Part shown: positions 2 through 24,741 of the stretch, piece after piece
How the letters are laid out: each line of letters starts with the position of its first letter
Position numbering within the stretch: the first letter of the stretch is position 1
Source of the DNA: Alphaproteobacteria bacterium
GTDB taxonomy: Bacteria; Pseudomonadota; Alphaproteobacteria; JASGCL01
Direction of reading: 5' to 3'
Assembly: GCA_051010635.1 (NCBI GenBank)
Contig: JBPCVJ010000002.1
Coordinates: forward strand, 14,848 to 78,847
Length of the DNA: 64,000 nucleotides
Notes under the pieces: model-generated
The model's input: the letters and a program-made list of their open reading frames with translations, nothing else
Told to the model about the DNA's origin: nothing
The model's database searches: none
Made by a program: the position numbers and the translations under genes

Positions 2-1006
2 AATTTTGGCAAGGGCAGTATTATGAAATTGGGGGCAAAACAGCAAGAACATGTTGCATCCATTTCGACTGGTTCATTAAATTTAGATATTGCCTTGGGG
101 GTTGGCGGTTTGCCAAAAGGTAGGGTGGTTGAAATTTATGGTCCTGAAAGTTCGGGCAAAACCACCCTTGCCTTACATGTTTTGGCGGAGGCACAAAAAC
201 AGGGCGGGCAGGTAGCTTTTATTGATGCCGAACACGCCCTTGACCCTGCATATGCTAAAAAACTTGGCGTCAATATTGATGATTTGTTGATATCACAGCC
301 CGATACTGGCGAACAGGCTTTGGAAATTGCTGATACTTTGGTGCGATCATCGGCGGTGGATGTTTTGGTGATTGATTCGGTGGCCGCCCTAGTGCCGCGT
401 GCCGAATTGGAAGGCGAAATGGGCGATGTGCAGGTAGGCACGCAAGCAAGATTGATGAGTCAGGCATTGCGAAAACTTACTGGCACAATCCATAAATCAA
501 ATTCAATGATTATTTTTATTAACCAAATTCGTATGAAAATCGGCATGATGGGTTATGGTAGCCCCGAAACCACCGCTGGCGGTAATGCGTTGAAATTTTA
601 TGCATCGGTTAGGTTAGATATTCGCCGCATTGGTGCGGTGAAACATAGCGATGTTATCATTGGTAATCAAACCAAAGTCAAGGTGGTCAAAAACAAAGTT
701 GCCCCGCCTTTTCGTATTGTGGAATTTGATATTTTATATGGCGAGGGTATATCGCGGGTTGGCGAAGTGATTGATTTGGGGTTGGCCGCTGGGGTTTTGG
801 CAAAATCGGGGGCTTGGTTTTCATATGGCGATGAGAGGATAGGTCAAGGGCGTGAAGCGGTGCGAAGTTATTTAAAAAATAATCCTGAGATTTGCAAAAA
901 AATTGAATTGCAGATAAGGGAAAAATCAGAAAAAATTTCTGAAAATATGCTTGAAGAACCATTAACGCCCGCTGACGAAGATTTACCCCCACCGCCCGTG
1001 GAGTAG
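2..1006 (+). CDS. recA: Recombinase RecA (5' end cut by window edge)
   Basis: Reading frame is open back to position 2 (..[11 protein letters not shown]..). Walker [10 protein letters not shown] and RecA core [14 protein letters not shown] are present. Confidence 0.95.
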
Positions 1007-1023
1007 GTGTGGTTTATTATTCA

Positions 1024-1830
1024 TTATAAAATTTGCAAAAATAAACCAATCCCCACAATAATCGCCAAGCCGATTCGCCACCAAGCAAATAGAATTAATG
1101 TGTGGCTTTGTAAATAATGCACCAGCCATTTAACCGCCATAAAGGCAGTTATGAATGAAACGGCAAAACCGCTTAACAATACCCCAATATCATTGTTGGC
1201 TAACAATGCCGAACCATGTTGCCATATCTTAAAAATTGACGCCGCCGATAAAGTTATCACCCCAAGCAAAAATGAAAATTCAATCGCCCCCGCCATTGAT
1301 AAACCCACCCACATCCCGCCTAACATAGTGGCAAGGCTGCGGCTAACGCCGGGCCACATAGCAAAACATTGTATCAAACCTATCACCAATGATTGTTGCC
1401 AAGTCATATTATCTATTGTGCCTTTTTTGATATGATAATTTTTGGGCAATGATAAAATAACCACCCCGCCAACAAACCACGCCACCACGACTGGTGCCAA
1501 ACCAAATAGATGTTCTTCAATTTTTTTATCAAATAATAAACCTATCACCGCGGCGGGCAAAAATGCCACCAATAAATTTTTTAATAATTTCAACCCCTTG
1601 CGGTCAGAATGAAAAACCCCTGTCAATAATTGTAAAAAACGATGTTTGTAAATTGCCAATACCGCCAATATAGCGCCACCTTGAATGGCAATAATATAAG
1701 CATTGTTGATAGCAGACGAATCAATACCCAATAGCCTTTGGGTGAGAATAAGATGCCCAGTGGAACTCACTGGCAAATATTCGGTTATACCCTCGACCAC
1801 ACCCAATAGGATAGATTGAAAATAATCCAT
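1024..1830 (-). CDS. uppP: Undecaprenyl-diphosphatase (BacA/UppP)
   Basis: MDYFQSILLGVVEGITEYLPVSSTGHL is the N-terminal signature of UppP and the protein is multi-TM. Start chosen at the internal MDYF Met (ATG complement at 1828-1830); the ORF could extend to 1872. Confidence 0.85.
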   Translation of the reverse strand: MDYFQSILLGVVEGITEYLPVSSTGHLILTQRLLGIDSSAINNAYIIAIQGGAILAVLAIYKHRFLQLLTGVFHSDRKGLKLLKNLLVAFLPAAVIGLLFDKKIEEHLFGLAPVVVAWFVGGVVILSLPKNYHIKKGTIDNMTWQQSLVIGLIQCFAMWPGVSRSLATMLGGMWVGLSMAGAIEFSFLLGVITLSAASIFKIWQHGSALLANNDIGVLLSGFAVSFITAFMAVKWLVHYLQSHTLILFAWWRIGLAIIVGIGLFLQIL

Positions 1831-1898
1831 AAAATAGCCTCTACCCATAAAACGATTCGTAAATCCCAGCAATCAAAAAAATAATACCCCTTAAACCA

Positions 1899-1975
1899 TG
1901 GCGTTCCCGACAGGATTCGAACCTGTGACCTTAGGATTAGGAATCCTACGCTCTATCCAGCTGAGCTACGGGAAC
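1899..1975 (-). tRNA. tRNA-Arg (anticodon CCT)
   Basis: Reverse complement GTTCCCGTAGCTCAGCTGGATAGAGCG-TAGGA-TTCCTAA-TCCTA-AGGtCACAGGTTCGAATCCTGT-CGGGAAC-G-CCA forms a cloverleaf: 7-bp acceptor stem, D-loop AGCTCAGCTGGATAGAGC, anticodon loop TTCCTAA, T-loop GGTTCGAATCC, encoded CCA. Confidence 0.9.
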
Positions 1976-2009
1976 ATTGTTTTTATCAATGGCTTTTTTT
2001 ATAAAAAAA

Positions 2010-2609
2010 CTAGTCGTCGCTTTTCATAAAATGGCTAGGCTTCATATCGGTTGAAATAGCTACCACCCCTGATCGCACCAATTCTATCTTACCCAAATCA
2101 TAAGCCCATTTAATAAATTGTTCTGTGTCAGCCACATGGCCACTATATTCAATTATCATACCGCGTGCCATATTTTTAATAACCATCGCACCTTTCTTTT
2201 CTATTTGGGCAATGATTTTTTTTCTCTTATCTTCTGTGCCCTCCAGCAATAATTTTATCAATATAATTTCTACTGACATAAAATTACCATCGGTGGTCAA
2301 ATCATGCACCTCATGCACCGGTACCAACCTTTCAAGCTGGGCTTTAATTTGCCGAATGGTTTTTTCATTACCCAATGTCACCAATGTAATTCTTGATAAA
2401 TAATTATGCTGGCTAACCGGCGAAACAGTAAGGCTTTTGATATTATAACCCCGCCCTGAAAACAACCCCACCACCCTTGCCAATACCCCCGCTTCATTAT
2501 CCACCACCACTGCTAATGTATGAAAACGCCTTTTGGTTTTTTCTTCGCTGATTTCATAAGCCGAAGCTGGCGGCGCATCATCATGGATAGGTTTTTTTTT
2601 ATTTGTCAT
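2010..2609 (-). CDS. ilvH: Acetolactate synthase small (regulatory) subunit
   Basis: ACT-domain AHAS small-subunit pattern HTLAVVVDNEAGVLARVVGLFSGRGYNIKSLTV. Start set at MTNKKK (ATG complement at 2607-2609), 8 nt downstream of the ilvB stop. Confidence 0.85.
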   Translation of the reverse strand: MTNKKKPIHDDAPPASAYEISEEKTKRRFHTLAVVVDNEAGVLARVVGLFSGRGYNIKSLTVSPVSQHNYLSRITLVTLGNEKTIRQIKAQLERLVPVHEVHDLTTDGNFMSVEIILIKLLLEGTEDKRKKIIAQIEKKGAMVIKNMARGMIIEYSGHVADTEQFIKWAYDLGKIELVRSGVVAISTDMKPSHFMKSDD

Positions 2610-2616
2610 ATTTATA

Positions 2617-4383
2617 TCACACCAAAGTTTTTCCTGCCTTGTCAATAGCCTCTTCCCCCTCCACCATCGGCCCCAACAACATTTCATTATGTGGCTTACC
2701 CGATGGTATCATAGGATAACAATTTTCCATTGGGTCAATACAAACATCCACCATCACTGGTCCATCATATAAAAGCATTTTATCAATTATCGTATCCACA
2801 TCTTTTGGTTTTTCCACACGCAAACCCAACCAGCCAAAACTCTCTGCCAATTTAACAAAATCGGGCAAAGAATCAGAATAACTTTCTGAATAACGCCCAC
2901 CATGCAACAATTCTTGCCACTGACGCACCATACCCAAATATTCATTATTAAGAATAAAAATTTTAATCGGCAAACGATATTGTTTGGCGGTTGCCATCTC
3001 TTGCATATTCATCAAAATAGAACCTTCGCCCGCTATATCAATCACCAATTTATCGGGGTTACCAAGTTGTGCCCCTATCGCCGCTGGCATACCATAACCC
3101 ATCGTGCCAAGTCCGCCCGATGTAAGCCAACGATTCGGTTTCTCAAAATGGATATATTGTGCCGCCCACATTTGATGCTGACCCACCTCGGTTGAAATAA
3201 TATAATCACGCGATTTTATTTTTTGTTGTAGGCGTTCTAAAGCATATTGCGGCTTGATAACCTCATCGCTGTTTTTATAATTGAGACATTTTTTACTACG
3301 CCAATCATTTATATTTTGCCACCATTGGCTAAGGTCTGCCTGTTTGGTTGTTTGTGAAAGTGTTTTTAATGTATCACGCAAAGCCAAAAGTGCCGCCTCG
3401 CAATCGGCAAGAATGGTCATATCCACCTCAACCGTTTTATTAAAACTACTACTATCAATATCAATATGAATTTTTTGACTATGGGGCGAAAAATCATCCA
3501 ACTTACCAGTGATTCTATCATCAAACCTTGCCCCCACGCATAACATCACATCGCAATCATGCATCGCCCAATTAGCTTCATAAGTGCCATGCATACCCAA
3601 CATACCCAAAAAATTTTTATCACTGGCAGGAAAAGCCCCAAGCCCCATCAAAGTCAAGGTTACGGGAAAATTTCCCATCGCCACAATGTCTTTCAATAAA
3701 TTAAATCCATGCCCGCCTGAATTGATAAGCCCACCGCCACCATAGATGATAGGTTTTTTTGCCGCCCATAATATTTCGGCAAGTTTTTTTATTTTATGAC
3801 CATCGGGTTTGGTTTGTGGCTGATAACTGGGGTGCGGTTTATCCTTAAAAGATTTATAATCGGTGGCGGCAAATTGCACATCTTTGGGAATATCAATCAA
3901 AACCGGTCCTGGTCGCCCAGCGGTTGCCACATAAAAAGCCTGATGAATAACCCGTGATAGATTTGTAAGGTCCTTCACCAAATAATTATGTTTGGTGCAA
4001 GAACGGGTGATGCCCGTGGTATCGCATTCTTGAAAAGCATCGGTGCCGATAAGATGCGTTGGCACCTGACCCGAAATACACACTATCGGTATTGAATCCA
4101 TCAAAGCATCGGTTAAACCTGTGATGGCATTGGTAGCGCCCGGTCCCGATGTAACCAATAAAATACCGGGTTTGCCTGTGGATCTAGCATAACCCTCAGC
4201 CGCATGGGCGGCACCGCCCTCTTGCCTCACCAAAATATGGCGAATATGATTTTGTTGAAACAGCTCATCATAAATCGGTAACACTGCCCCCCCCGGATAG
4301 CCAAACACGGTATCAACCCCTTGCTCTTTTAAAACTTGTAGCAAAATCTGCGCACCAGTTAATTGAATTTTATCAGCGGTCAT
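2617..4383 (-). CDS. ilvB: Acetolactate synthase large (catalytic) subunit
   Basis: TPP-enzyme motifs (GYPGGAVLPIYD, ThDP-binding GLGTMGYGMPAAIGA.. NNEYLGMVRQWQ). Start at MTADKIQLTGAQ (ATG complement at 4381-4383). Confidence 0.9.
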   Translation of the reverse strand: MTADKIQLTGAQILLQVLKEQGVDTVFGYPGGAVLPIYDELFQQNHIRHILVRQEGGAAHAAEGYARSTGKPGILLVTSGPGATNAITGLTDALMDSIPIVCISGQVPTHLIGTDAFQECDTTGITRSCTKHNYLVKDLTNLSRVIHQAFYVATAGRPGPVLIDIPKDVQFAATDYKSFKDKPHPSYQPQTKPDGHKIKKLAEILWAAKKPIIYGGGGLINSGGHGFNLLKDIVAMGNFPVTLTLMGLGAFPASDKNFLGMLGMHGTYEANWAMHDCDVMLCVGARFDDRITGKLDDFSPHSQKIHIDIDSSSFNKTVEVDMTILADCEAALLALRDTLKTLSQTTKQADLSQWWQNINDWRSKKCLNYKNSDEVIKPQYALERLQQKIKSRDYIISTEVGQHQMWAAQYIHFEKPNRWLTSGGLGTMGYGMPAAIGAQLGNPDKLVIDIAGEGSILMNMQEMATAKQYRLPIKIFILNNEYLGMVRQWQELLHGGRYSESYSDSLPDFVKLAESFGWLGLRVEKPKDVDTIIDKMLLYDGPVMVDVCIDPMENCYPMIPSGKPHNEMLLGPMVEGEEAIDKAGKTLV

Positions 4384-4470
4384 TTTTTTTCTTTCAATAA
4401 AACAAATACTCACAACAGATGAACATGTCAAGGTTGCGATAATTGATAAATTATTTTATAGGCTTGATAT

Positions 4471-5334
4471 ATGAAAAATTTAATCACCATGTTACGCCCA
4501 CACCATTGGGTTAAGAATCTTTTGGTTTTTACGATTTTGGTTGCCGCCAAACAGGCTTTTAACATTGAATTGCTTTGGCAAAATATCATTGTTTTTTTTC
4601 TATTTTGCCTATCTGCATCAAGCGGTTATATTATCAATGATGTGCTGGATAAAAAAAATGATATGCGGCACCCATCAAAAAAATTTCGCCCGATCGCATC
4701 GGGCAAGGTTTCTATATCCATAGCCTTCATCACGACTTTTATTTTATTATTGCTGATGGCATGTTTATCATTGGTATTTTTTTCACCAATGGTTTTATAT
4801 TTGCTGTTTGGTTATTTTCTATTGGCAGTTTTTTATTCCCTCTACTTAAAAAAATTACCGATACTTGACCTGATGATGCTTTCTTTATTTTATTTTTGGC
4901 GGGTGTGGGTGGGTAGCGAATCTGCAAACATACCATTAAGTTTTTGGCTTATCATTTTTACATTGTTTTTATTTTTTAGCCTATCTTGCCTGAAACGATA
5001 TGTTGAATTACAAAAATCAAAAACCAACCGAGAATATAAAAATATCGGTGGGCGTGGCTATTTGCCAAATGATGATATATTTGTCATGTTGATTGGTATA
5101 GCTTCATCTTTTGCGGCATTGGTGGTTTTGTCTTTATATTTTCATGAAATCAATTATTATTTTTCTTATATCTATATTATCATATTATTCCTTTGGCTGA
5201 TGCGGCTTTGGCTATTGAGTTATCGCAATATCATGTATGATGACCCGCTGGTATTTGCCATCAAGGATAAATGGTCGCTGATATTATTTTTCTTTGCTGG
5301 TGTTTTTATCATCATCGATACGCTGTTGATATAA
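4471..5334 (+). CDS. UbiA-family polyprenyl-phosphate 5-phosphoribosyltransferase (DPPR-synthase, Rv3806c-like)
   Basis: N-terminus RPHHWVKNLLVFTILVAA matches the Rv3806c motif RPRQWVKNVLVLAAPLAA. YIINDVLDKKNDMRHPSKKFRPIASGKVS matches YLVNDVRDVEADREHPTKRFRPIAAGVV, including the Asp-rich NDxxDxxxD. The 287-aa protein has about 8 TM segments. Confidence 0.8.
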   Translation: MKNLITMLRPHHWVKNLLVFTILVAAKQAFNIELLWQNIIVFFLFCLSASSGYIINDVLDKKNDMRHPSKKFRPIASGKVSISIAFITTFILLLLMACLSLVFFSPMVLYLLFGYFLLAVFYSLYLKKLPILDLMMLSLFYFWRVWVGSESANIPLSFWLIIFTLFLFFSLSCLKRYVELQKSKTNREYKNIGGRGYLPNDDIFVMLIGIASSFAALVVLSLYFHEINYYFSYIYIIILFLWLMRLWLLSYRNIMYDDPLVFAIKDKWSLILFFFAGVFIIIDTLLI

Positions 5335-5349
5335 ATTTTATAAAATTTT

Positions 5350-7102
5350 ATGAAACATATACAACATTTAAAAAAATATCTTCTAGCTAATAAAATAGCT
5401 AATTATATTTTTTCTTATCGCCTTTACATATTATTTATATTGTTGGTGGTGGCGTGTTTTTATTCTTTTTATAAAAATTCATTCCATATTGTCAAACCAC
5501 ATGCCATGGCAAGCTATCAAAAAAAGGTGGAGGCAATGGTTCTTAGCTATCTGGTTGCTGATGAATATTCTATTGATACCCATAACAAGTGGGGGTTTCT
5601 TATGCAGGACCATTCTTATTATAATCATCTCATCATACCAGAAAATCTTTCTATGCATAATATTTGGATGAATAATAAAAAACGCGAATCAATAACATTG
5701 AGGGTAAAATCTTATCAACCCATAGATTATCTATTACCCAGCTACACTCACCCAAAACCCCATACCCTTGTAAAATTAGAATTGGATAAAAATAGTGCCT
5801 TGCCCATAGATGGTCGTTTTAATTATGGAAAAAATAATTATGGTTATAATGGTAGAGATTTATTTATTAATAAAAAATCACCCCCCCCCCCCCCTCAAAA
5901 CCATCATTAGGGCGGTTGAAATAATTGGCGATAAAACTTATATCACCGTTGCCTTACCATTGGATAAATTATCAGCCATCAATCAAAATAATTTTACCAT
6001 TACACTATCTGGCGAACCCATCACTGCAGATAATATTAAAACATTTGGCTTTTGGCCCTATTTCAGTGCCATAGGCGGACAAAGCTATATTTTTTCTTGG
6101 CTTTACAAACATACCGATAACAAAGATATTAAAACATTATGGAAAATCACTGCCCTGTTATCAGCCATTGGCTTGGTTAGTTTAACATTTTTATATTATC
6201 GTTCCAATATCTTTCCCAAGGGATTTTCAATCGCATTTTTTGTCAGTATATTTTTTTCTACCGCCTTTACCCTATATGCTAGAAATCCTTACTGGATACC
6301 ATTCTTATGGTTTTTGCCAATCATATTTGCATTGCTTTATGTCAAGGCAAAATCTATCAAACAACAGAGGATAACTTTATTATTATTATATTTTGCCTTT
6401 CTATTAAAATGTATGACCAGCAGTTATGAATTTCTTAGCCCCATTGTTTTGATGATGGCGGCACCTGCCAGTTATTTATTTTTTGTAAGTAACAACTATA
6501 AAGATAAAATTGCAAATGGTAAAAAATTTCTTATGATATTTTTTATAACATTTTTAGCTTTTGTAACAACCATTTTTATTCATGCCTATATGGTAGGTGA
6601 AATGATATTGCATCAAAATATCATTGAGGGATTCAAATATCTCTATAATGAAAGATTCCGAGTTAGAGTTATAAATCTTTCAGGCTCAGATGACATATTT
6701 CAGCTTCATTCTTATAGTCAACCTAGCCACGAAGTATCTTATCTATCGGTATTAAAAACTTATATTTTTGATAGATGGTATTATAACAATATTATTTGGG
6801 GTATATCGGGGAAATGGTTTCCATGGTTAATTTTTTTAACTGGTTTGATGATCATATCTAATGATTTTATACCCCTAACCCAACGCAAAAGAAAAACCTA
6901 TAGTGCCTTATTTTTATCATTTGTTTTGGTGGCACCATCTTGGTATATTTTGGTAAAACCTTCAGCCTATAATCAGCAACATATATATTATATGGCATGG
7001 TATTTTGGATTCATCGCGGCATTATTTTATATTATAGCCAGCCACTTAAACATCTATAGAAAAATAATTTTTTCTTATGGCAAAATGAAACTTGATAGAT
7101 AA
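5350..7102 (+). pseudogene. GT-C-like multi-pass membrane glycosyltransferase, disrupted by a +1 frameshift in a C14 tract (phase-variable or pseudogene); paralog of the 14079-15878 gene
   Basis: ORF 5350-5910 (frame 1) ends ..KKSPPPPPQNHH*. ORF 5810-7102 (frame 2) continues ..HPPPPLKTII..NNFTITLSG..KTLWKITALLSAIGLVSLTFLYYRSNIFPKGF. The two pieces align collinearly with the N- and C-terminal parts of the intact 599-aa paralog; removing one C (or adding two) fuses them. Confidence 0.75.
5881..5894 (+). repeat. Homopolymeric C14 tract inside the coding sequence (slipped-strand mispairing site)
   Basis: Fourteen consecutive C from 5881 to 5894, read directly. The homologous position in the paralog (14748-14753) has only C6. 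Confidence 0.9.
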
Positions 7103-7125
7103 AATTTTTTTTATATTTTATCTAT
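7094..7125. terminator. Weak AT-rich inverted repeat between convergent genes (possible bidirectional terminator)
   Basis: atagataaaat (7095-7105), a 9-nt loop, then attttatctat (7115-7125). It overlaps both stop codons. The stem is almost entirely A/T, so stability is low. Confidence 0.2.
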
Positions 7126-8580
7126 AAATTCTGTGCCATATTTTTTGGCTATCGCCATAATGGTGGCTTGGGGGTTGCAACCCATAGCGGTTGGCACTTG
7201 CGACCCATCGGCAATATAAAAATTATCATAACCCCATACCAAACCTGTCTGGTCGGTTATACCCATCTGGCGATTACCGCTTGGCGGGCAAGACCCCATT
7301 AAATGGATAGACATCAAATTATAATTTTCGGTTCGAGAAGAATCTTTTTTTACATCTGCCATATTATGCCACCCCCGATGCCCAGCAATATCGGGCATAA
7401 CTTTTTTGGCACCATATGCAAACATAATTTCAGCCAAATACCCCATACCTTTTTTTAAATTAGCAAAATCAACCATCGCCAATTTATAGTTAATCAACGG
7501 GCTATCAAGCATTGGCAAAAAATGAAACCTACCTTTGGCGGTGGGCTTTATCATAACATAATAGGATCCAACATAATCCATATCCTGTAAAAATTCTGAT
7601 GCATTGTCATAATTATTTGCCAATGCCATACCTACAAAACCTCTGGTAAAAATAGAACCACCAAGCCGAATATCTGGCATAAATTCAGAAACAAAAGCCC
7701 CTGGCGCCATGGAAGCAGCCGTTTGAATTTTTTTAGGAAACAAACCAAACATTTTTAGCGTTGGGTGTAATTGAAAATTATCAAATGGCAAATTTGACCT
7801 TACGCCAGATTTTTTTAATATCATTGGCGTGTGGATAGAGCCAGCACAACAAAATACATATTTGAATTCAATCACCAGCTTTTTTGATGTATTATTTTTT
7901 TTCACATCGCAATAGGCACGCACAGCTTTTTTACCCTTAAAGCTAAGACGATTCACACGGCAACCCAATATCACCCTCATACCCCTTTTCAATGCCAATG
8001 GCAAAAGGCTGTTTGACATTGAGCGTTTGCCCTTTATCGGGTTGCCATATATTCTATCATCTTTTTCATCGGGCTTCATAGCAATCGATAAATATTCAGC
8101 GGCATAATTTAATTTTGCGGCACCTTTGATTAAAACATCGCTATCGGCATAATATTTTTTATGATAACTCACATGCATCTGTGAAAAACTTTTATCCCAA
8201 TAGCGAAGCAAATTTTTATAAGACCATGAATCATCTAATTGATAGGCACTTTGCCAATTTTTTACCACCTGTTCATGAGGGCGTTGAAATATTGCCGAAT
8301 TAATTTCGGTTGAACCGCCAAATGTTTTGCCTTCGGCAAATGCGATATTAGGTTTGCCCAATGTTGCGGTTAAACCCGAATTACGCCACAATTTGATAAA
8401 AACCTCTTCGGGTGTTTTTAATTGTTTGATGGGGTATTTTTCCCCCTCCTCCACCATCAAAACATCCATACCATGTTGGGTGGCAATATCGGCTATGGTT
8501 GCCCCGCCAGCTCCAGAACCTATAATCAACAGGTCAGCTTTATAAATTTTATCAGTGGCATTAACATTGATGAAGGTCAT
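7111..8580 (-). CDS. GMC-family FAD-dependent oxidoreductase
   Basis: N-terminal Rossmann DLLIIGSGAGGATIA..VLMVEEG; 489 aa with GMC-type C-terminal region (..GSCPPSGNRQMGITDQTGLVWGYDNFYIADGSQVPT..). Confidence 0.8.
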   Translation of the reverse strand: MTFINVNATDKIYKADLLIIGSGAGGATIADIATQHGMDVLMVEEGEKYPIKQLKTPEEVFIKLWRNSGLTATLGKPNIAFAEGKTFGGSTEINSAIFQRPHEQVVKNWQSAYQLDDSWSYKNLLRYWDKSFSQMHVSYHKKYYADSDVLIKGAAKLNYAAEYLSIAMKPDEKDDRIYGNPIKGKRSMSNSLLPLALKRGMRVILGCRVNRLSFKGKKAVRAYCDVKKNNTSKKLVIEFKYVFCCAGSIHTPMILKKSGVRSNLPFDNFQLHPTLKMFGLFPKKIQTAASMAPGAFVSEFMPDIRLGGSIFTRGFVGMALANNYDNASEFLQDMDYVGSYYVMIKPTAKGRFHFLPMLDSPLINYKLAMVDFANLKKGMGYLAEIMFAYGAKKVMPDIAGHRGWHNMADVKKDSSRTENYNLMSIHLMGSCPPSGNRQMGITDQTGLVWGYDNFYIADGSQVPTAMGCNPQATIMAIAKKYGTEFIDKI

Positions 8581-8849
8581 TTTTTATCCCCCTCAAATAA
8601 AACCAAAAAAGTAAGCGAACGATAAACCCTTATCAATAATTGAAAAAAATGAATATGTTTGCGTAAAATTTTATCCAATTTCAAAAACAAAAATGGTAAA
8701 TAACATAAAGTCAAAATAACAATAGCCCATTTCACATGAAAGGGAGCATTTTTTAATGATTGTTTAACAAATAAAATATGGGGTGGCTTGACCGCTTTGC
8801 GAAAATGAAGCGGCAATGAATGATGTGTCATCAAACGCACGAATATCAT
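8577..8849 (-). CDS. Small hypothetical membrane protein (90 aa) packed between the SDR and GMC genes
   Basis: The ORF exactly fills the gap: its start is 7 nt after the SDR stop and its stop overlaps the GMC start. One predicted TM (WAIVILTLCYLPFLFLKL). No recognisable family. Confidence 0.35.
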   Translation of the reverse strand: MIFVRLMTHHSLPLHFRKAVKPPHILFVKQSLKNAPFHVKWAIVILTLCYLPFLFLKLDKILRKHIHFFQLLIRVYRSLTFLVLFEGDKK

Positions 8850-8855
8850 ATTGAT

Positions 8856-9896
8856 TTAAAAAATTTTTGATGCTTGCTTGGCAAGGGATAATATCCCGCG
8901 CGGCACTGGCTTGCGATGGGTGGATTGATGGGTTTTATCAAAAGAAGAATAGTTTTTTAAATACCAGCGATAGCTATCAACCATCATATCAACATTGCCA
9001 TATTTCGGTTGCCAGCCAAGTGCTTTGGTTATATGGGTAATATCATAATAAAAATCCTTGTGATAACTTAAATAATGCCATGGACCCAAGGGGGATAATT
9101 TTAACTTATCTGCCGTCAATAAAACCAATTTAGCCAAACCAATCGGTAAAGAAATAACTTTTGATTTTGCACCAACTTTTTTAATAAAAGCTTCTAGGTC
9201 ATGCCTTAAACAGCCAAATGGCAAACCACCAACATTAAATAAACCAGATTTTTTTAACAGGGATGCCCTTACACTCACATTCGCCAAATCTTCAACCTGC
9301 ACAAATTGAAACAAATTATTACCCTTGCCAATGATAAAGATATTGGCATCGTCTTTTATCCAATCAAATAATATTTCAAATATACCAAGCCGTTCCTTGC
9401 CAATGACGGTGCGTGGTCTTATTAAACAGGCTGGCAAACCATCTTTCATCGCCTGTTGCACCAATTTATCAGCATCGGCTTTGGCTTTGCCATATTGTTC
9501 TATCGGTTGCAATGGCGCATTGGGCAAAATAGGCATGGTTTTGGCTAAACCAAAAATTGCCGATGATGACATATTACAAAGCATTTTGATATTATGCTTG
9601 AAACCCATATCAATAATATTTTTTGTGCCCACCACATTGACTTCATGAAATTTTTTGCCCGCTTTCGCCAATGGCACCAAAGCGGCATTGTGGTGAATAT
9701 GGGTAACATGTTTCATCACCTTATCGACTGCCGCCTTATCGGTTACATCCAAATAGGCAAAATGATCCTTGAATTCATCATTTTGCCAAATATCGGTTAG
9801 TAATATATTTTGTTTTTTTGCCAAAAGTTGCCTAGCAATATGGCTACCCACAAAACCCGAACCGCCGGTTATCAAATGTAAATCATTATTTGCCAT
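8856..9896 (-). CDS. NAD-dependent epimerase/dehydratase (extended SDR)
   Basis: N-terminal LITGGSGFVGSHIARQLL Rossmann motif; 346 aa with extended-SDR layout. Confidence 0.8.
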   Translation of the reverse strand: MANNDLHLITGGSGFVGSHIARQLLAKKQNILLTDIWQNDEFKDHFAYLDVTDKAAVDKVMKHVTHIHHNAALVPLAKAGKKFHEVNVVGTKNIIDMGFKHNIKMLCNMSSSAIFGLAKTMPILPNAPLQPIEQYGKAKADADKLVQQAMKDGLPACLIRPRTVIGKERLGIFEILFDWIKDDANIFIIGKGNNLFQFVQVEDLANVSVRASLLKKSGLFNVGGLPFGCLRHDLEAFIKKVGAKSKVISLPIGLAKLVLLTADKLKLSPLGPWHYLSYHKDFYYDITHITKALGWQPKYGNVDMMVDSYRWYLKNYSSFDKTHQSTHRKPVPRGILSLAKQASKIF

Positions 9897-10050
9897 GGTT
9901 ATACCCCATCAATATTTTAATCATTTTATCTATGGTTATAAATATCATCGCCATTCATCTGTTTGTTGGTCTTATTAGCCAATATCATAGCGATTGGCAA
10001 ATAGATAATTATCTTGTTATTTTAATAAAAATTATTTATCAACTAACATC

Positions 10051-10677
10051 ATGACGCAAAAAATTTTTCTAAAATGTTTGCTTTATATTGGCTATTATAG
10101 CTGTGGGTTATTTTTAGGATTCCTATTTTATATATTTGGAATGGCATTAGGTATGTTTGATAATGATTTGCTATTTTACCGCGGCATGAAAGTTATTTTG
10201 GTAAGCCAAATATTTTTGCTTGGCTTGTTATTCTTTTTTGATAAAATCATCAACCAGCACCAAAATACCAAAATAAATCAGCTATTAACATTGGCACCAC
10301 TGAAACCCCATATCATAGCCATTGTGCTTGTAGGGGCAAGTATCAATGTGTGTTTTCATTCGGTTGTGCCCACGATCATTGATAGATCCATCAGCGTTTT
10401 TTTATTAGGGTTCACCCATAATTTAGAAAAAAATAATCAAACAGCTAATATTGATAATTGGCGTCAAGGGTTTGATAAAATCTATGCCGATGATTATCAA
10501 GCCATCGAGCGGCGACTAGAAGAACAGATAAGAAGCGGTAATGTTATAACAACATCAAATGGCACAATTATGCTTACCAACAAAGGCAAACAATTTCTTA
10601 TAGCGGCGGCTTACCTTAACAAATTATTGGGGATTGATAATAAACATGTTAACCCGCCCGTTGATAAATTAAATTAG
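10051..10677 (+). CDS. Hypothetical membrane protein (about 4 TM N-terminal half, soluble C-terminal half)
   Basis: 208-aa ORF directly upstream of the GT-C-like gene (23-nt gap). Hydrophobic segments LLYIGYYSCGLFLGFLFYIFGMALGMF, VILVSQIFLLGLLFFF, IIAIVLVGASINVCF. No PAP2 or GtrA motif recognised. Confidence 0.45.
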   Translation: MTQKIFLKCLLYIGYYSCGLFLGFLFYIFGMALGMFDNDLLFYRGMKVILVSQIFLLGLLFFFDKIINQHQNTKINQLLTLAPLKPHIIAIVLVGASINVCFHSVVPTIIDRSISVFLLGFTHNLEKNNQTANIDNWRQGFDKIYADDYQAIERRLEEQIRSGNVITTSNGTIMLTNKGKQFLIAAAYLNKLLGIDNKHVNPPVDKLN

Positions 10678-10699
10678 ACCAAATATATTATCGCCCACC

Positions 10700-12508
10700 A
10701 TGCTACATCAGGTCAATCATCTTAAAACCAGCCCCATCTATATTACCTTTACTGCCATAACGATAATATTATATGGTTTGGTTATTTTCTTTGCCAAATA
10801 TGGGTTTGATATACTTGATGAGGGGTGGTATCTTTTCACTATCACAGACCCTGATTTTACCAAATCACGGTTTCATTATGGTTTGGGGTATCATTATCTT
10901 TTTCTTTTATTAAATGAAAATATTATTCATTTAAGAATTGCCAATATCATTATTTTTTTCATATTGGCATTCTTATTAGCAAAAGAAATTCTTTTTTCTT
11001 ATTTCAAATCATTCAAATTACGCCCTTATCAATTTTTTATTTTATGCGTGGCAATGGCATCCATATCATTATTATATTTTGTTATCATTTACACACCCAG
11101 TTATAATTCTCTTGCTATCAAAGCCCTCATCATTATAGCCATAGGTCTTATCAATATCCTTAATCACCCTACGCCAAAATTAAAAAAATGGTGGCAACAA
11201 AATAGGTGGGGTGCATTAATTTTAGGATTTGGCATGTTTTTACTTTTTCTTGCCAAACCATCATCATTTTTAGCTGTTTGTTTTTTTCTATTGATGATAT
11301 TTTTATTTTATAAATCATCTAGACTGCTCTTTATAATAGCTGGCATCGCAAGCAGTTCACTATTTTCCATTTATATTATTTTATATTTTGAAGCCGATAT
11401 TATCAAATATATTGAAGAAACAAAAAACACTATCATCGCCCTTCATAAGTTAGATCGCCATTATACATGGATCACTCAATTAAACCTATTGCGGGGGATT
11501 TACATACCCAACATAGCATATATTTTCCTTGCCCTGCCCCTCATATATAAAATAGCACTTACCTATCGCCCATCAAGCTCATGGCTTATCATTCGTTTTA
11601 TCAATCGGTATATTGATATATTTATTATGATATGTTTGTCATTGGGTATAGGTTTGGTAAAACCTTCTCATGTATATGCTTTACAAACTTTTTTTGCCAT
11701 CATGATAGTTTATTGGGCTATTTTGATAAATATATTTCACAATAATAAATTCATTGACCAATTATTAAACCCCAAGATATTTGCCATTATATTATTTTGT
11801 TTTTTATCACCCTATCTATTTGCCTTTGGCACAGCCAATATTATATTGTTTCAAATGTGCTTAGGCGCAATTTTATTTGCATTATGCGCTATTTTATTAT
11901 TATCATTTTTACCAAACAAGCCAAATTATCTTTATATCGGTATTTTATTTTCACAATTATTAACTTTTTATTGCACCACCTATTATATCCACCACCCTTA
12001 TCGCCATATTTCTTTTTTTTCTAACCAATTGGCACCATTAAAATTTTATGATAGCCATAACAAACCCTACTACCTCACCGTATCACAAAATTATAAAAAA
12101 CTAATAGAAAAAAGTCGGTCAATTTTTTATAATAATGGTTTTGCCGCAGGAACGCCCATTATAGATGCAACAGGTGTAGCAACCGGAATTATATTTGCGC
12201 TTGATGCCACCCCATTGGGGCGATATTTTTTAATTACCGAAACTGCTATCAAACATGATATTAAACAAAATCAATGCGATAGAATTGCAAAATCTTGGCT
12301 GATGACCATGCCAAGCCGCACAAATGACCTTTGGGGCGTTGTGCCATTACGCCCCAAAGAAATATTAAAAACCTATCATGCCGACCTAAAAACCGATTAT
12401 GATTTTATAGGCAATATCACGGCTTTAAATTTTCGCACCAAAGGCAAAACCGAAACCATCAATTTCTATCGCCCCAAACCTATACTAAAAACCAAATGTA
12501 AAAAATAA
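10700..12508 (+). CDS. GT-C-like polytopic membrane glycosyltransferase (ArnT/PMT-like architecture)
   Basis: 602 aa with more than 10 TM segments. TM1 is followed immediately by the acidic motif FDILDEGWY, the position of the catalytic DE/DD in GT-C enzymes. Lys-rich C-terminal tail. Confidence 0.5.
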   Translation: MLHQVNHLKTSPIYITFTAITIILYGLVIFFAKYGFDILDEGWYLFTITDPDFTKSRFHYGLGYHYLFLLLNENIIHLRIANIIIFFILAFLLAKEILFSYFKSFKLRPYQFFILCVAMASISLLYFVIIYTPSYNSLAIKALIIIAIGLINILNHPTPKLKKWWQQNRWGALILGFGMFLLFLAKPSSFLAVCFFLLMIFLFYKSSRLLFIIAGIASSSLFSIYIILYFEADIIKYIEETKNTIIALHKLDRHYTWITQLNLLRGIYIPNIAYIFLALPLIYKIALTYRPSSSWLIIRFINRYIDIFIMICLSLGIGLVKPSHVYALQTFFAIMIVYWAILINIFHNNKFIDQLLNPKIFAIILFCFLSPYLFAFGTANIILFQMCLGAILFALCAILLLSFLPNKPNYLYIGILFSQLLTFYCTTYYIHHPYRHISFFSNQLAPLKFYDSHNKPYYLTVSQNYKKLIEKSRSIFYNNGFAAGTPIIDATGVATGIIFALDATPLGRYFLITETAIKHDIKQNQCDRIAKSWLMTMPSRTNDLWGVVPLRPKEILKTYHADLKTDYDFIGNITALNFRTKGKTETINFYRPKPILKTKCKK

Positions 12509-12535
12509 AATCAATGTTCAATTTATCCCATGCGA

Positions 12536-13966
12536 TTAACATTCTGGCAGGGCAACCGAAACTTTACTGGCAAGCCCACCCTCGGAGGTTTCTTTGTATT
12601 TATGCATCATATCCTTCCCCGTTTCCATCATGGTTTCAATCACCTTATCCAAACTCACCAGATGCTCGCCATTGCCATGTAAGGCAAGGCGTGAAGCATT
12701 GATAGCCTTCACCGCACCCATGGTGTTGCGTTCAATGCATGGCACCTGCACCAAACCCTTTATCGGATCACAAGTTAGACCAAGATTATGCTCCATACCT
12801 ATTTCGGCAGCATTTTCTACCTGCTCAACCGAACCACCCATGGCTGCCGTCAATCCCGCAGCCGCCATAGAACAAGCCACACCAACCTCCCCTTGGCAAC
12901 CCACTTCGGCTGCCGATATGGAAGCATTTTTTTTATAAAGCATACCTATTGCCGCAGCGGTTAGCATAAAAATTCGCATATTTTTTATATCCTTACCACC
13001 TGGCACAAATCTATGGTAATAAGCCATCACAGCAGGAATAACCCCTGCCGCACCATTGGTCGGGGCGGTAACCACACGACCACCAGCGGCATTTTCTTCA
13101 TTCACTGCTAGGGCAAACACATTCACCCAATCCATGGTTTTCATAGGAATTTCATCAAGCTCCACATCGCCCAATTTCATTTTTATTTCTTGATTCGATT
13201 TTTCTAAATTATCGGCTATTTGTTTGGCACGCCGCCGAATATTAAGCCCACCGGGCAAAATTCCTTCTTGTTGTATGCCACGCTCAATAGAATTGTTCAT
13301 CGCCTGCCAAATATTATCTATAGATTTTTCAATATCTTCTTGCTTACGCCACACCAATTCATTTTCCATCAATAGTTCGGCAATGGTAATATTTTTTTTC
13401 TTGGTGATGCTTAACAATTCTTCGGCACTGTGAAAAATATTGGGCAAAACCACATTGCTTGATGCAGCGGCATTGCTAACGCCGCGGTTAAATTCTTCAT
13501 CGCTTAATACAAAACCTCCCCCCACCGAATAATATGTGTCTTGATAAATCAATTTGCCATTTTTATCGGTGGCAATAAATTCCATCGTATTGGAGTGTTT
13601 TTCTTTAAATTCGCCATAACGAAAATCCAAATGTTTTTCATAAATAAACTCAATTTCATGTTGCTGATGAAGCAAAAGTTTTTTGGATTTTTTGACATGT
13701 TGAATCTTATTTTCAACCAAATTAGGGTCGGTTTCATCTGGTTTTTCGCCCATCAAACCAAGCACAATGGCACGGTCGGTGGCATGCCCCAACCCCGTCA
13801 TAGCCAACGAGCCATATAGTTTCACCGTCAATTCAGCCACATGGTTTAATTTTTTTTGGGTTACCAAATCAGCCACATACCGATTTGCTGCCACCATAGG
13901 CCCCACCGTGTGCGAACTAGACGGCCCAATACCAATTTTAAATAAATCAAAAACCGATAGATGCAT
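12536..13966 (-). CDS. sdaA: L-serine dehydratase, single-chain Fe-S type
   Basis: [24 protein letters not shown] is the canonical SdaA N-terminus, and Cys-containing beta-domain motifs are present. Start at ATG complement 13964-13966. Confidence 0.9.
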
Positions 13967-14078
13967 AATGATACATTCTACCACAAAAAGCCACGATTAT
14001 CAAAAAATTATTGTATTTATATTAAAAATAATTTAGAAAAAACAAGCAAACTATCATTTTTTTACCATCATTCGCATC

Positions 14079-15878
14079 ATGCATATCAAATTAAAACCAT
14101 TATGGTCCTATCGCCATATTGCCATATTTTTGCTTTTGCTAACGGCTTGCTTTTTTTCTTTTTATAAAAATAGCTTTCGCATCGTAAAAAATAATTATCT
14201 TTTTTACCAAACACCCAGCTATGATGAAATGTTGGTCATTGGTAGAATTTTGGTTGATGAATATAACTTAAAAAAAATAATTACGGTGTATAATTTAGAT
14301 AAAATTGATAAACACAATACCAACAGATATGTTGGAAAAGAAGGGGCGACAAAATATAATTTGCTGTGGCCAGATGTGCCTTACCATTTAAGACTTTCTT
14401 ATATTTTTCAATTGCCACAAAATATATTACAAAATAACCAGCCGATTGACGATATAACATTATCACCCATTGCCTATGAAACAAAATGGTGGAAAAAACC
14501 TAACATCATATTTAATAACATATTTAAATTAAGTGATGATAAAATATATTTAACTAGAATAAAGGTCAAAAAAGATAAACTCAATTTTAAACAACATTAT
14601 CAATATAGGAATCAGCCAAGCGAAACAGCCTATAGACATGATTACAGCTACAGCGGTAGAACATTGCTTATCGGCAATTACAAAACCATGGTAAGGCAAG
14701 TTTTATATAGCCCTGCCTCAGACCTTGCCTATATCCACACCACCATACCCCCCGATGAATTACAAAAAATAAAAAAAAATAATTCCACTATCACCCTATC
14801 GGGCAATGTAATGGAAAAAGAAATATTACAAAACAATGTGCGTTTCGCCAGTTATATCAGCACCGTGGGATTACATGGTTATATTTTTTCTTGGCTGTTT
14901 CAACACAGCGATAAAAACCTTGAAACATTGTGGAAAATCACATCATTATTATCGGCATTGGTTATCGTTGGTTTAACATTTTTATATTATCGCAGTCATA
15001 TTTTTCCCAAAGGTTTTGCCATTAGTTTTTTTGCAAGTTTATTCTTATCGGTTATTTTTACCGCCTATGCTAGAGATCTTTATTGGCTACCCTTCACATG
15101 GTTCTTACCATCTATCTTTGCTATCCTCTATATCAAGGCAGAAAACCATTGGCATAGAATTATTTATATATTGCTGACCTATCTTGCCTTTACCTTAAAA
15201 AATATCACCACTGGCTATGAGATAACATCCAGCGTCATATTAATGGCGGCAGCACCAGCGGCTTATTTGCTATTAACCAGCCAATCACTCAATCAAAAAA
15301 TTATCGCCCTCAAAAAATTTTTTATGATATGTTTTCTAGGCGTAGCAGGTTTTTTCACCAGCCTATTGATACTTGCCTACATCAGGGGCGATTCTAATAT
15401 AATTGATGGGTTAAAATCCATTTATGATGTCAATATAACCAAACGCATTATCAATAAAAGCGATGAGAATATTCCTGGCTACATAAGGGATTCCTCCATA
15501 TCTTATTATGAAGTATTTAAAATATTCTTTCGCTGGAATCATGATTGGGGTTATCCCCAAACATTAAACATAATTGATTGGTTACCGATAAAATTTGTTC
15601 ATTTATTTTTCTTATCTTTTTTTATCACTCTATCCAGCTGGGTGGTGCCATTCTTACAACACAAAAAATATATCTATAACAGTCTATTTATCATATTCTT
15701 TCTTACCGCTTCATCTTATATTATCTTGGCAAAATATGATGCCTATCTACATATATTTCAAAATTTGGTTTTGTGGTATTTTGGTTTTATTGCCGCCATG
15801 TTCTATATCATTGCCAGTGGTATGATGACTTATGGCAAAATAATACTTGCCTATGGCAAAAAGAAAATAGCTGTCTGA
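14079..15878 (+). CDS. GT-C-like multi-pass membrane glycosyltransferase (intact paralog of the frameshifted 5350-7102 gene)
   Basis: 599 aa. N-terminal TM, then a conserved acidic motif (RILVDEYNL versus LVADEYSID in the paralog), then at least 10 TM segments. Long collinear identity blocks with the 5350-7102 product (e.g. ETLWKITSLLSALVIVGLTFLYYRSHIFPKGF). Confidence 0.55.
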   Translation: MHIKLKPLWSYRHIAIFLLLLTACFFSFYKNSFRIVKNNYLFYQTPSYDEMLVIGRILVDEYNLKKIITVYNLDKIDKHNTNRYVGKEGATKYNLLWPDVPYHLRLSYIFQLPQNILQNNQPIDDITLSPIAYETKWWKKPNIIFNNIFKLSDDKIYLTRIKVKKDKLNFKQHYQYRNQPSETAYRHDYSYSGRTLLIGNYKTMVRQVLYSPASDLAYIHTTIPPDELQKIKKNNSTITLSGNVMEKEILQNNVRFASYISTVGLHGYIFSWLFQHSDKNLETLWKITSLLSALVIVGLTFLYYRSHIFPKGFAISFFASLFLSVIFTAYARDLYWLPFTWFLPSIFAILYIKAENHWHRIIYILLTYLAFTLKNITTGYEITSSVILMAAAPAAYLLLTSQSLNQKIIALKKFFMICFLGVAGFFTSLLILAYIRGDSNIIDGLKSIYDVNITKRIINKSDENIPGYIRDSSISYYEVFKIFFRWNHDWGYPQTLNIIDWLPIKFVHLFFLSFFITLSSWVVPFLQHKKYIYNSLFIIFFLTASSYIILAKYDAYLHIFQNLVLWYFGFIAAMFYIIASGMMTYGKIILAYGKKKIAV

Positions 15879-15927
15879 TACTAAAAATTATTGTATTTCT
15901 AACAAGAATAATCTAAAAACACATATC

Positions 15928-16296
15928 ATGGCGAATATCCTCACCCATTTGATTAAAATTTTTGATAGTCGCTTTATCGGTAGCGACCCGCTAGGCAATC
16001 GCTATTATGAAAGACGAAAATATGACGCATGGGGGCGCAAAAAACGATTCATCATCTATATCGGCAAGGAAGATGATGCCAGCCTGTTGCCGCCCGAATA
16101 TCACGCATGGATGCATTATATCATTGATGATTTTCCCACCGCAGGGCAAACCAGCTATCGTCGTTTTTATCAAAAACCGCATAGTGCCAATCTATCGGGT
16201 AGCCGAATGGCTTATAAACCAAAACGCTCCCCTGCCACTGGCGATTACCGGTCATGGTCGCCCAACAAAATGCGTCATCATCAGCCAAAAAAATAA
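15928..16296 (+). CDS. NDUFA12-like protein (NADH:ubiquinone oxidoreductase 17.2-kDa subunit family)
   Basis: GSDPLGNRYYERRK ... RFIIYIGKEDDASLLPPEYHAWMHYIIDD matches the NDUFA12 family pattern G.NxYYE ... PPEWH.WLH..D. Confidence 0.75.
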   Translation: MANILTHLIKIFDSRFIGSDPLGNRYYERRKYDAWGRKKRFIIYIGKEDDASLLPPEYHAWMHYIIDDFPTAGQTSYRRFYQKPHSANLSGSRMAYKPKRSPATGDYRSWSPNKMRHHQPKK

Positions 16297-16300
16297 TATC

Positions 16301-16798
16301 ATGAGCTTTCGCCAATTTTTTATTCTATTTCGTTTGCGCCTGATGGGCATCGCTGTTATGGCGGGGTTGTTATGGGCAACCTATATGGGTCTGGTTAAGG
16401 TAGGGCAATGCAATAGCGATGGTCGTATGATGTTAAAGGGCGTATTTTCATCGGTGGATGGGGTAAAGCGTGGCACACCCATTTTATTGGCAGGTCTTGA
16501 AGTCGGGGAGGTTTGTGCCCTAACCTATCTAACCGATAAAAATCAGGTGGAGATATTAATGGCGGTTGAAGATAATTTAAATCTTGCCGAAGACAGCGGT
16601 TTTGCCATCGTATCTTATGGATTGAACGAACCAAAAATTATCAACATCACCCCTGGCGGTAGTTTTACCAACCTTGCCAATGGCGATGAAATTATTTATA
16701 CCTTGGGCACAGTAGCAATTGAAAAATTGTTATTGCTGGTGTTGGAGCGTGCCGAATCAAAAACCAATCTTACCAAACCCACATCCAACTTAGAATAA
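16301..16798 (+). CDS. MCE-domain protein, MlaD-like (copy 1)
   Basis: N-terminal TM (GIAVMAGLLWATYMGL) followed by an MCE-like core MLKGVFSSVDGVKRGTPILLAGLEVGEV. Start taken at the ATG 4 nt after the NDUFA12 stop; the longer ORF from 16007 overlaps NDUFA12 out of frame. Confidence 0.6.
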   Translation: MSFRQFFILFRLRLMGIAVMAGLLWATYMGLVKVGQCNSDGRMMLKGVFSSVDGVKRGTPILLAGLEVGEVCALTYLTDKNQVEILMAVEDNLNLAEDSGFAIVSYGLNEPKIINITPGGSFTNLANGDEIIYTLGTVAIEKLLLLVLERAESKTNLTKPTSNLE

Positions 16799-16801
16799 AA
16801 T

Positions 16802-17305
16802 ATGCAAACAAAACATAGTTCATTAGAAATTATTTTAGGTGCAGGGCTTTTGGTGCTGGCGGTTTTGTTTGGTTGGCAATTATGGCAAGATAAAGAAAAT
16901 ATTTTACAAAATAAATTTTATGTGGTGAAGGCATCGCTTGACAATGCAAGTGGATTAGATACTGGCACAGCGGTTAAGATGGCAGGATTAAAAATAGGTC
17001 GGGTCAAAAGCAAAAGCCTAAACAAAACAACCTATCGTGCCGAATTAGAAATAGAAATCAACCAAGATATTAAATTACCAAAAGATAGTCGGTTGGTGGT
17101 TGGCGCATCAGGATTATTGGGATCGCCCGAAATAAAAATTGAACAGGGTGCCTCAAGCGAAATGTTAGCCGCCGGTGCTACATTTGAAAAAACCGTCAGC
17201 CAACCATCGCTGGAAGATATGATAGGTCGCGCGATATTTGTTTTGAATGCGGTGGGCAGTGGTAACGATACCGATCTAAACAATGATGATGCGGTTAAAA
17301 AATAA
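16802..17305 (+). CDS. mlaD: MCE-domain protein MlaD
   Basis: TM (LEIILGAGLLVLAVLFGW) followed by the canonical MCE core YVVKASLDNASGLDTGTAVKMAGLKIGRVKS. Confidence 0.75.
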   Translation: MQTKHSSLEIILGAGLLVLAVLFGWQLWQDKENILQNKFYVVKASLDNASGLDTGTAVKMAGLKIGRVKSKSLNKTTYRAELEIEINQDIKLPKDSRLVVGASGLLGSPEIKIEQGASSEMLAAGATFEKTVSQPSLEDMIGRAIFVLNAVGSGNDTDLNNDDAVKK

Positions 17306-24733: not shown

Positions 24734-24741
24734 TAAAAATA

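Follow-up and report, generated by a model that had tools for sequence, protein, structure and literature searches.

Poly-G/C tracts of Campylobacter, Neisseria, Haemophilus, Helicobacter, and Bordetella undergo slipped-strand mutation at high frequency, and soluble GT-A or GT-B enzymes are typical of the contingency loci built on them. Such loci have been described for glycosylation and LPS genes in Campylobacter jejuni, Neisseria, Haemophilus, and Helicobacter (Cj1295, PMC3068675; surveys, PMC2831843 and PMC3315296). A contingency locus of this kind has a G/C tract of at least about 8 nt within the ORF or promoter, switches its product from full-length to truncated, or back, as repeats are gained or lost, is otherwise intact and under constraint, and has as its defining property a tract length that varies in a population or among close strains. 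I found the first three of these properties in a split gene, here called copy A, of an uncultured, unclassified alphaproteobacterium: its tract is C14, full-length products of 583 and 584 aa result from C13 and C16, respectively, and the rest of the gene is intact and constrained. The gene lies in a 64-kb stretch of DNA, the whole of which is called the window below. As in the known loci, the long G/C run lies in the first third of the ORF, a change of ±1 toggles the gene between a full-length protein and an early stop, and the product is a predicted surface-glycan enzyme encoded in a variable locus. In contrast to the known loci, the host is not a known host-adapted pathogen, copy A is known from one consensus length with one such tract in 64 kb, and the predicted enzyme is polytopic with a GT-C fold instead of being a soluble GT-A or GT-B protein. 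The best single explanation, to which I give about an even chance, is that the hypermutable tract toggles an accessory paralog on and off and that the consensus sequence caught the gene in the OFF state.

The split gene, its parts, and its paralog are located as follows.

5350..7102, plus strand: the whole split gene, copy A; 583 aa with a C13 tract, 584 aa with C16; GT-C fold predicted

5881..5894, plus strand: the C14 homopolymer and frameshift site, characterized by base count, uniqueness scan, alignment, and predicted structure

5350..5910, plus strand: the N-terminal fragment ORF of 186 aa (NCBI ACR2NY_00460), spanning TM1, the conserved motif after it, and a portion of the beta domain

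5849..7102, plus strand: the C-terminal fragment ORF of 417 aa from the ATG at 5849 (NCBI ACR2NY_00465), or 430 aa from the ATG at 5810

14079..15878, plus strand: the intact paralog, copy B, of 599 aa (ACR2NY_00505), whose equivalent site has no homopolymer

In the consensus sequence of one MAG, an A and a T flank 14 uninterrupted C residues at 5881-5894, and the position of this run inside a coding region was as originally predicted. Frame 1 is open from the ATG at 5350 to 5910 (186 aa) and ends as ...GRDLFINKKSPPPPPQNHH with a stop codon that, in the C14 reading, lies five codons past the tract. Frame 2 is open over 5810-7102 (430 aa) and passes through the tract as ...NHPPPPLKTIIRAVEIIG... 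The shift required to join the two halves is +1, from frame 1 to frame 2. When one C is deleted, a single ORF of 583 aa is obtained, in which the C13 tract codes for Pro178-Pro181, about 30% into the ORF; C16 gives 584 aa. The split by a +1 frameshift, its repair at C13 or C16 to an ORF of about 584 aa, and the full-length similarity to the paralog at 14079-15878 had all been predicted, and the computed ORFs and alignments bear them out; the repaired protein aligns with copy B from end to end with 39% identity (E 3e-104). ACR2NY_00460 and ACR2NY_00465, which were deposited as two hypothetical proteins, are halves of one gene, and ACR2NY_00465 holds the conserved polytopic GT-C core.

The tract is also exceptional in the window. 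The other G/C runs reach at most 9 (C) and 8 (G), the window has no second run of at least 12 C, and such a run did not appear in any of 100 dinucleotide-preserving shuffles. The G+C content of the window is 38.8%, and copy A is the AT-richest gene of the locus (GC 30-31%, GC3 26-29%). Since the only G/C run longer than 9 thus sits in the AT-richest gene and was not reproduced by shuffling, it is no compositional accident. As a separate possibility, it was considered whether the tract is a poly-G read tail inserted by assembly; this was rejected, because both flanks continue one gene in register and in-frame tract lengths exist.

Is the length of the tract correct? Homopolymers of about 14 nt are hard to size on every sequencing platform. 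The run is at the limit of reliable calling, the sequence is a single MAG consensus, and copy A shows no other damage and matches its relatives in conservation; the OFF state may therefore be an error of ±1 in the consensus or the assembly, in which case the true majority would be C13 (or C16), the gene would be intact, and the split would be an artefact. I consider this unlikely, though it survives better than the other alternatives. All of the checked G/C homopolymers lie in intact ORFs (C8 in ilvB, C9 in a methyltransferase gene, G7 and G8 in carB, and G7 at the end of cox3), and two A10 runs are also within long ORFs, one of which is SURF1. Since these homopolymers, up to A10 and C9, are in frame, the consensus is of good quality, and the assembly shows no general tendency to frameshifts at such runs. 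Moreover, an error may shift the length by one or two bases but cannot create a tract, and it is nearly certain that the tract exists in the organism. If it does, copy A would flip ON and OFF, whether or not this is selected. A true C13 would still be hypermutable, so that a miscall would alter the observed state but not the mechanism. A G7 at 33714, which lies in an ORF overlap, was also considered as a second frameshift; this was rejected, since COX3 and SURF1 are separate complete genes.

How did the tract arise? The original prediction took the C6 of copy B (14748-14753, in the codons for IPPDE) as the homologous site and proposed that it had expanded in copy A. It was revealed by BLASTP and MAFFT that IPPDE pairs with LPLDK of copy A, some 25 codons 3' of the tract. 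The KSPPPP sequence at the tract is a six-residue insertion, and copy B and the two closest orthologs read IG[NQ]------YKTMV there. Thus, because KSPPPP faces a six-residue gap and IPPDE pairs elsewhere, the tract was not derived from the C6; that it is peculiar to copy A stands, but that it grew from the C6 does not. None of the 49 other aligned family members has a poly-Pro run. The in-frame tract lengths are 1, 4, 7, 10, or 13 C, a series consistent with an ordinary codon context having been extended step by step. In the predicted structure, the insertion maps to the loop that links strand 170-174 to strand 182-192 of an extracytoplasmic beta domain. Since the tract is placed in such a connecting loop and the insertion is absent from the paralog and the orthologs, a variable number of Pro residues should be tolerated there, as far as the structural model indicates.

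GT-C enzymes hold catalytic acids in the region following TM1. The original prediction that the gene is GT-C-like has moved from a guess to fold-level support: while a structure model built from two sequences reached a pLDDT of only 39.5, a usable model was obtained from an alignment of 50 sequences, and in it a polytopic membrane protein adopts the GT-C core fold, with its first extracytoplasmic loop expanded by a beta-rich domain of about 150 residues. When 1.84 billion representatives were searched exhaustively by HMMER with a two-paralog profile, 728 relatives were obtained, 81 of them at E<=1e-30, and the portion conserved in this family is the C-terminal polytopic domain. The family motif directly after TM1 is FQxD-SE-xLVxGxIxAD. 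Copy A reads YQKK-VE-AMVLSYLVAD, so that E61 (the Glu) and D71 (the distal Asp) are retained while the first Asp is replaced by Lys, and copy B has SY-DE. An acidic motif at this place in the family would be a parallel to ArnT, PMT, ALG3/9/12, PimE, and the mycobacterial arabinofuranosyltransferases AftA, AftB, and AftD, although copy A keeps the motif only in part. Unlike these enzymes, the family has the beta-rich insertion and has no sequence match in Pfam, NCBIfam, or the PDB. Copies A and B matched no Pfam family at E<=1, copy B matched nothing in NCBIfam, and described GT-C families (PMT_2, PMT, STT3, Glyco_transf_22, and those of NCBIfam) were not matched; single-sequence and profile searches of the PDB gave nothing relevant. 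When eight relatives were compared with Pfam at E<=0.01, the only matches were Acyl_transf_3 and a weak Pmp3, both on one protein (P0014), which is a fusion to an Acyl_transf_3 O-acyltransferase. Copy A probably encodes a GT-C-fold glycosyltransferase with an accessory role, in a family that has no annotation.

The interval between ilvB and sdaA was compared among related genomes.

L010: the UbiA gene and a homolog of the 208-aa protein (both described below) only, with no GT-C copy

L001 and L002: one GT-C copy, a 201-aa gene, and the SDR, GMC, and UbiA genes

The present window: two GT-C copies and an extra 602-aa membrane protein that does not belong to the family

Because the gene content of this interval differs among related genomes (no, one, or two GT-C copies), copy A is, judged from these sequences, an accessory and lineage-specific paralog in a diversifying surface-glycan locus; variable copy number is typical of loci under diversifying pressure. 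The 602-aa protein (10700-12508) was considered as a third member of the GT-C family and rejected (hhalign probability 0.7%).

The lineage itself is little known. IlvB is 85-87% identical to a few other MAG sequences and only 67-70% identical to those of named bacteria (Aestuariispira, Marivibrio, and Pacificispira), and the nearest named relatives are, judged by name, mostly marine and Rhodospirillales-like. The window contains intact recA, uppP, ilvBN, sdaA, carB, mlaDEF, dnaG, rpoD, ctaB, cox3, and surf1. The description of the source as an intracellular alphaproteobacterium is unsupported: the MAG is labelled only as Alphaproteobacteria, its named relatives are as distant as 67-70%, and ilvBN, carB, the cytochrome oxidase genes, recA, and rpoD are intact. 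Since one related MAG has a chromosome of 1.63 Mb, a reduced, possibly host-associated lifestyle is conceivable.

Further copies of the genes were also sought. A word-indexed search of 5.8 billion proteins, run with the repaired protein and then with a 50-sequence profile, gave the same two matches both times, ACR2NY_00465 and ACR2NY_00505, which come from one MAG. Both halves and the paralog form singleton clusters, and the halves are singletons among 15 billion proteins. Exact-protein look-ups among contigs gave no match for the halves or the paralog, and two exact-pattern scans of JGI metagenome contigs with the left flank of the tract gave none either. A scan of species-representative genomes found two loci only, from related MAGs of other species.

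Is copy A a dying gene? No further stop codon or frameshift was found across its 1.75 kb, and about 400 codons are open downstream of the tract, where stop triplets are expected about once per 16 codons from the base counts. At 71 conserved columns, copy A has 25 mismatches to the family consensus, intact copy B has 24, and ortholog P0003 has 28. Because copy A is on par with intact homologs, these alignments give no sign of relaxed constraint, and the gene is not degenerate. It is nonetheless conceivable that a redundant paralog was killed by slippage at the expanded tract and is decaying without adaptive switching. The intact copy B lies in the same locus, relatives live with one copy or none, the GC and GC3 values of copy A, the lowest in the locus, would fit AT-biased drift, and the common Asp of the post-TM1 motif is missing. 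However, a recent pseudogene is somewhat less probable than even a miscall: neither a second lesion nor a loss of conservation relative to the intact homologs accompanies the frameshift, a long G/C tract in a gene of 30% GC is unstable and unlikely to form or persist by drift alone, and single-step reversion at C14 would be frequent, so that the dead state is not stable.

Where a homopolymer exceeds the length of the RNA:DNA hybrid, the polymerase can realign during transcription, and in endosymbionts and other bacteria this rescues genes that carry a frameshift (PMC5009743, PMC4256274). Copy A resembles the rescued genes (poly-A genes of Buchnera and Blochmannia, and Citrobacter tssM) in that a long homopolymer is the very site of the lesion and the rest of the gene is intact. 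For tRNA-Pro, the sequence CCC-C is classically prone to +1 shifts (PMC4519876, PMC7577736), the site offers at least four consecutive CCC-C contexts, and the required shift is exactly +1. It is nevertheless improbable that the DNA is stably C14 and that RNA-polymerase slippage (-1 or +2 nt) or a +1 shift of tRNA-Pro at CCC-C provides the enzyme at a low, leaky level, since documented bacterial transcriptional slippage occurs chiefly on A or T runs (PMC5009743) whereas for a C14 run slippage at the DNA level is better documented, since m1G37 and EF-P normally suppress the spontaneous +1 shift at CCC-C, and since read-through is compatible with DNA-level switching, to which it would probably just add leakiness. 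Rather than being the main mechanism, slippage of the RNA polymerase or the ribosome is likely to make the OFF state leaky.

The genes around copy A may supply the substrate of the enzyme. They are as follows.

4471..5334, plus strand: a UbiA-family polyprenyl-phosphate phosphoribosyltransferase-like gene (PF01040, E 1e-21)

7111..8580, minus strand: a GMC-family FAD oxidoreductase gene (PF00732, PF05199), conserved in the syntenic locus of relatives

8856..9896, minus strand: an SDR-type NAD-dependent epimerase/reductase gene (generic SDR), conserved in the syntenic locus

10051..10677, plus strand: a gene for a 208-aa membrane protein with no assigned function, a conserved partner in three of three related loci

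The UbiA-family protein matches NF006088 with an E value of 2e-81, which is below the curated cut-off, and its matches to the decaprenyl-phosphate phosphoribosyltransferase models NF008978, NF008977, and NF008976 (E 8e-42 to 8e-31) are also sub-cut-off. The UbiA gene shares its strand with copy A, ends 15 nt upstream of it, and is probably co-transcribed with it; a scan of 4300-7300 for promoters and terminators gave no usable signal in this AT-rich DNA. The surface-glycan context that had been proposed is supported in that copy A adjoins polyprenyl-phosphate-sugar genes. In having neighbours that would suit the making of a lipid-linked sugar, copy A resembles the GT-C enzymes that use polyprenyl-phosphate sugars (ArnT, PimE, AftA, and others).

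The decaprenyl-phospho-arabinose (DPA) pathway of Corynebacteriales includes the UbiA-type Rv3806c, DprE1, and DprE2, and Pseudomonas aeruginosa has a counterpart for pilin arabinosylation with the GT-C enzyme TfpW. DprE1 is a VAO-type flavoenzyme. The locus resembles this pathway in grouping a GT-C transferase with an SDR and an FAD oxidoreductase, and in having a UbiA enzyme related to decaprenyl-phosphate phosphoribosyltransferase, as far as a sub-cut-off match can tell. Unlike in the DPA pathway, the flavoenzyme belongs to the GMC family, and the combination of a DprE1-type oxidase with DprE2 was not found. Since the flavoenzyme is GMC-type and not DprE1-like, the locus was not filed under the DPA pathway. 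The GMC oxidoreductase is a candidate oxidase of a lipid-linked sugar and the SDR is a candidate reductase of a lipid-linked keto-sugar; by analogy, the UbiA, GMC, and SDR enzymes could make an epimerised lipid-linked pentose.

With the alternatives weighed, how would the ON/OFF switch operate? The tract would have arisen in the loop-coding insertion peculiar to copy A and, at about 14 nt, would be hypermutable through slipped-strand mispairing at replication. At C13 or C16, the gene would be ON and give a full-length enzyme with a loop of four or five Pro residues; at C14 or C15, it would be OFF and give the stub of 186 aa or a similar one. Cells would flip reversibly between the two states, so that the population would be heterogeneous in tract length and mixed for one surface decoration, while copy B and the donor pathway would stay constant. 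The switching enzyme would probably transfer a polyprenyl-phosphate-linked sugar, putatively made by the adjacent UbiA-type, GMC, and SDR genes, to a surface glycan at the outer face of the inner membrane. The original prediction was of a candidate phase-variable surface-glycosylation switch. The frame geometry, the glycan locus, a tract length of C14 within the known range, and the intact gene speak for it; switching itself, as the even chance given above implies, is a reading of these data. Besides the uncertainty in sizing a 14-nt run, several points count against the switch. One such tract in 64 kb gives no sign of a genome-wide phasome, the loss of copy A could be tolerated because an intact paralog is present, and copy A is without the Asp most common after TM1 in the family, which makes it only a putative catalyst.

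A bolder version of the switch reading is that it is a selected contingency switch in a little-known, small-genome alphaproteobacterial lineage, that it governs an undescribed GT-C family adding an oxidised or epimerised (possibly arabinofuranose-like) lipid-linked sugar, and that leaky +1 slippage may provide a third state. I regard this version as tentative and rather more doubtful than the switch alone. If it is true, simple sequence repeat (SSR) phase variation would be extended to polytopic GT-C enzymes and to a clade from which it is not known. The mechanism is of a known kind, and what is new is at most the enzyme class and the clade. If the tract length varies, it would mark a surface decoration worth randomising in a lineage known only from metagenomes, and would hint at pressure from phages, grazers, or a host.

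The family has distant members (L003, L008, and L009) that lie in polysaccharide clusters, where the immediate neighbours recur: a DAO-type FAD oxidase, an AP_endonuc_2 protein, a small EamA- or GtrA-type membrane protein, and a GT2 protein of about 270 aa. The predicted theme is the same as in the present locus: synthesis of a lipid-linked sugar, followed by its oxidation or epimerisation, its flipping, and its transfer. This GT-C family, which is unannotated, deserves to be described separately; together with the partners that recur around it (an FAD oxidase, an epimerase/reductase, a lipid-sugar synthase, and a small flippase-like protein), it is a more original by-product of this analysis than the switch.

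The two GT-C-like genes of the window, copy A (split into two ORFs by the C14 tract) and its intact paralog copy B, belong to a family with a predicted GT-C fold that comprises about 728 representatives at 50% clustering. The members considered here are:
5350-7102, window, copy A
14079-15878, window, copy B
8001-9572, L003, distant member
8001-10010, L008, distant member
4067-6202, L009, distant member
The family is unannotated: no Pfam model matched copies A and B, eight scanned relatives had no glycosyltransferase Pfam domain, and no NCBIfam model matched copy B. The motif FQxDSExLVxGxIxAD is conserved after TM1, and further conserved motifs are LSPW..FARNLYWxPFxWFLP, GYEYxSS, RRTYGD, and LAKxHSYIHTHxNxVLWYxG. 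In distant members, the GT-C gene is directly adjoined by genes for a DAO-type FAD oxidase, a GT2 of about 270 aa, an AP_endonuc_2 protein, and a small membrane protein of the EamA or GtrA type. A fusion with Acyl_transf_3 occurs in one family member. In the public annotation of the MAG, the halves of copy A were deposited as separate hypothetical proteins, not as one frameshifted gene:
5350-5910, ACR2NY_00460 (MGI9461035.1)
5849-7102, ACR2NY_00465 (MGI9461036.1)

It was found that the gene content between ilvB and sdaA differs among related MAGs:
12-5168, L010, UbiA and a 241-aa gene only
8478-18128, L001 and L002, the L010 set plus one GT-C, SDR, and GMC
2617-15878, window, two GT-C copies and an additional 602-aa membrane protein, in an inverted arrangement
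The additional protein is polytopic (10700-12508, + strand) and has no counterpart in the syntenic loci of the relatives, nor any match in Pfam, NCBIfam, or PDB sequences. Its membership in the GT-C family was ruled out (hhalign probability 0.7%). It may act in the glycan locus as a further transferase or polymerase.

Upstream of copy A, the UbiA-type protein (4471-5334, + strand, 287 aa) matches the NCBIfam model NF006088 (482 positions) from position 193 to 478 only; the N-terminal 190 or so positions of the model have no counterpart in the protein. Between the GMC and SDR genes lies a short ORF:
8577-8849, - strand, 89 aa, basic and partly hydrophobic
It matched no Pfam or NCBIfam family and is perhaps not a genuine gene.

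Other ORFs of the window are as follows:
42918-44969, - strand, 683-aa ORF
16007-16798 and 16802-17305, two adjacent MlaD-domain genes
The 683-aa ORF has no Pfam family at E<=0.001. The MlaD-domain gene pair adjoins copy B and a GT4 glycosyltransferase gene; the first gene is listed with 263 aa, of which only residues 112-244 match MlaD. The mlaE and mlaF genes (23930-25509) lie 6 kb beyond the pair, past carB.
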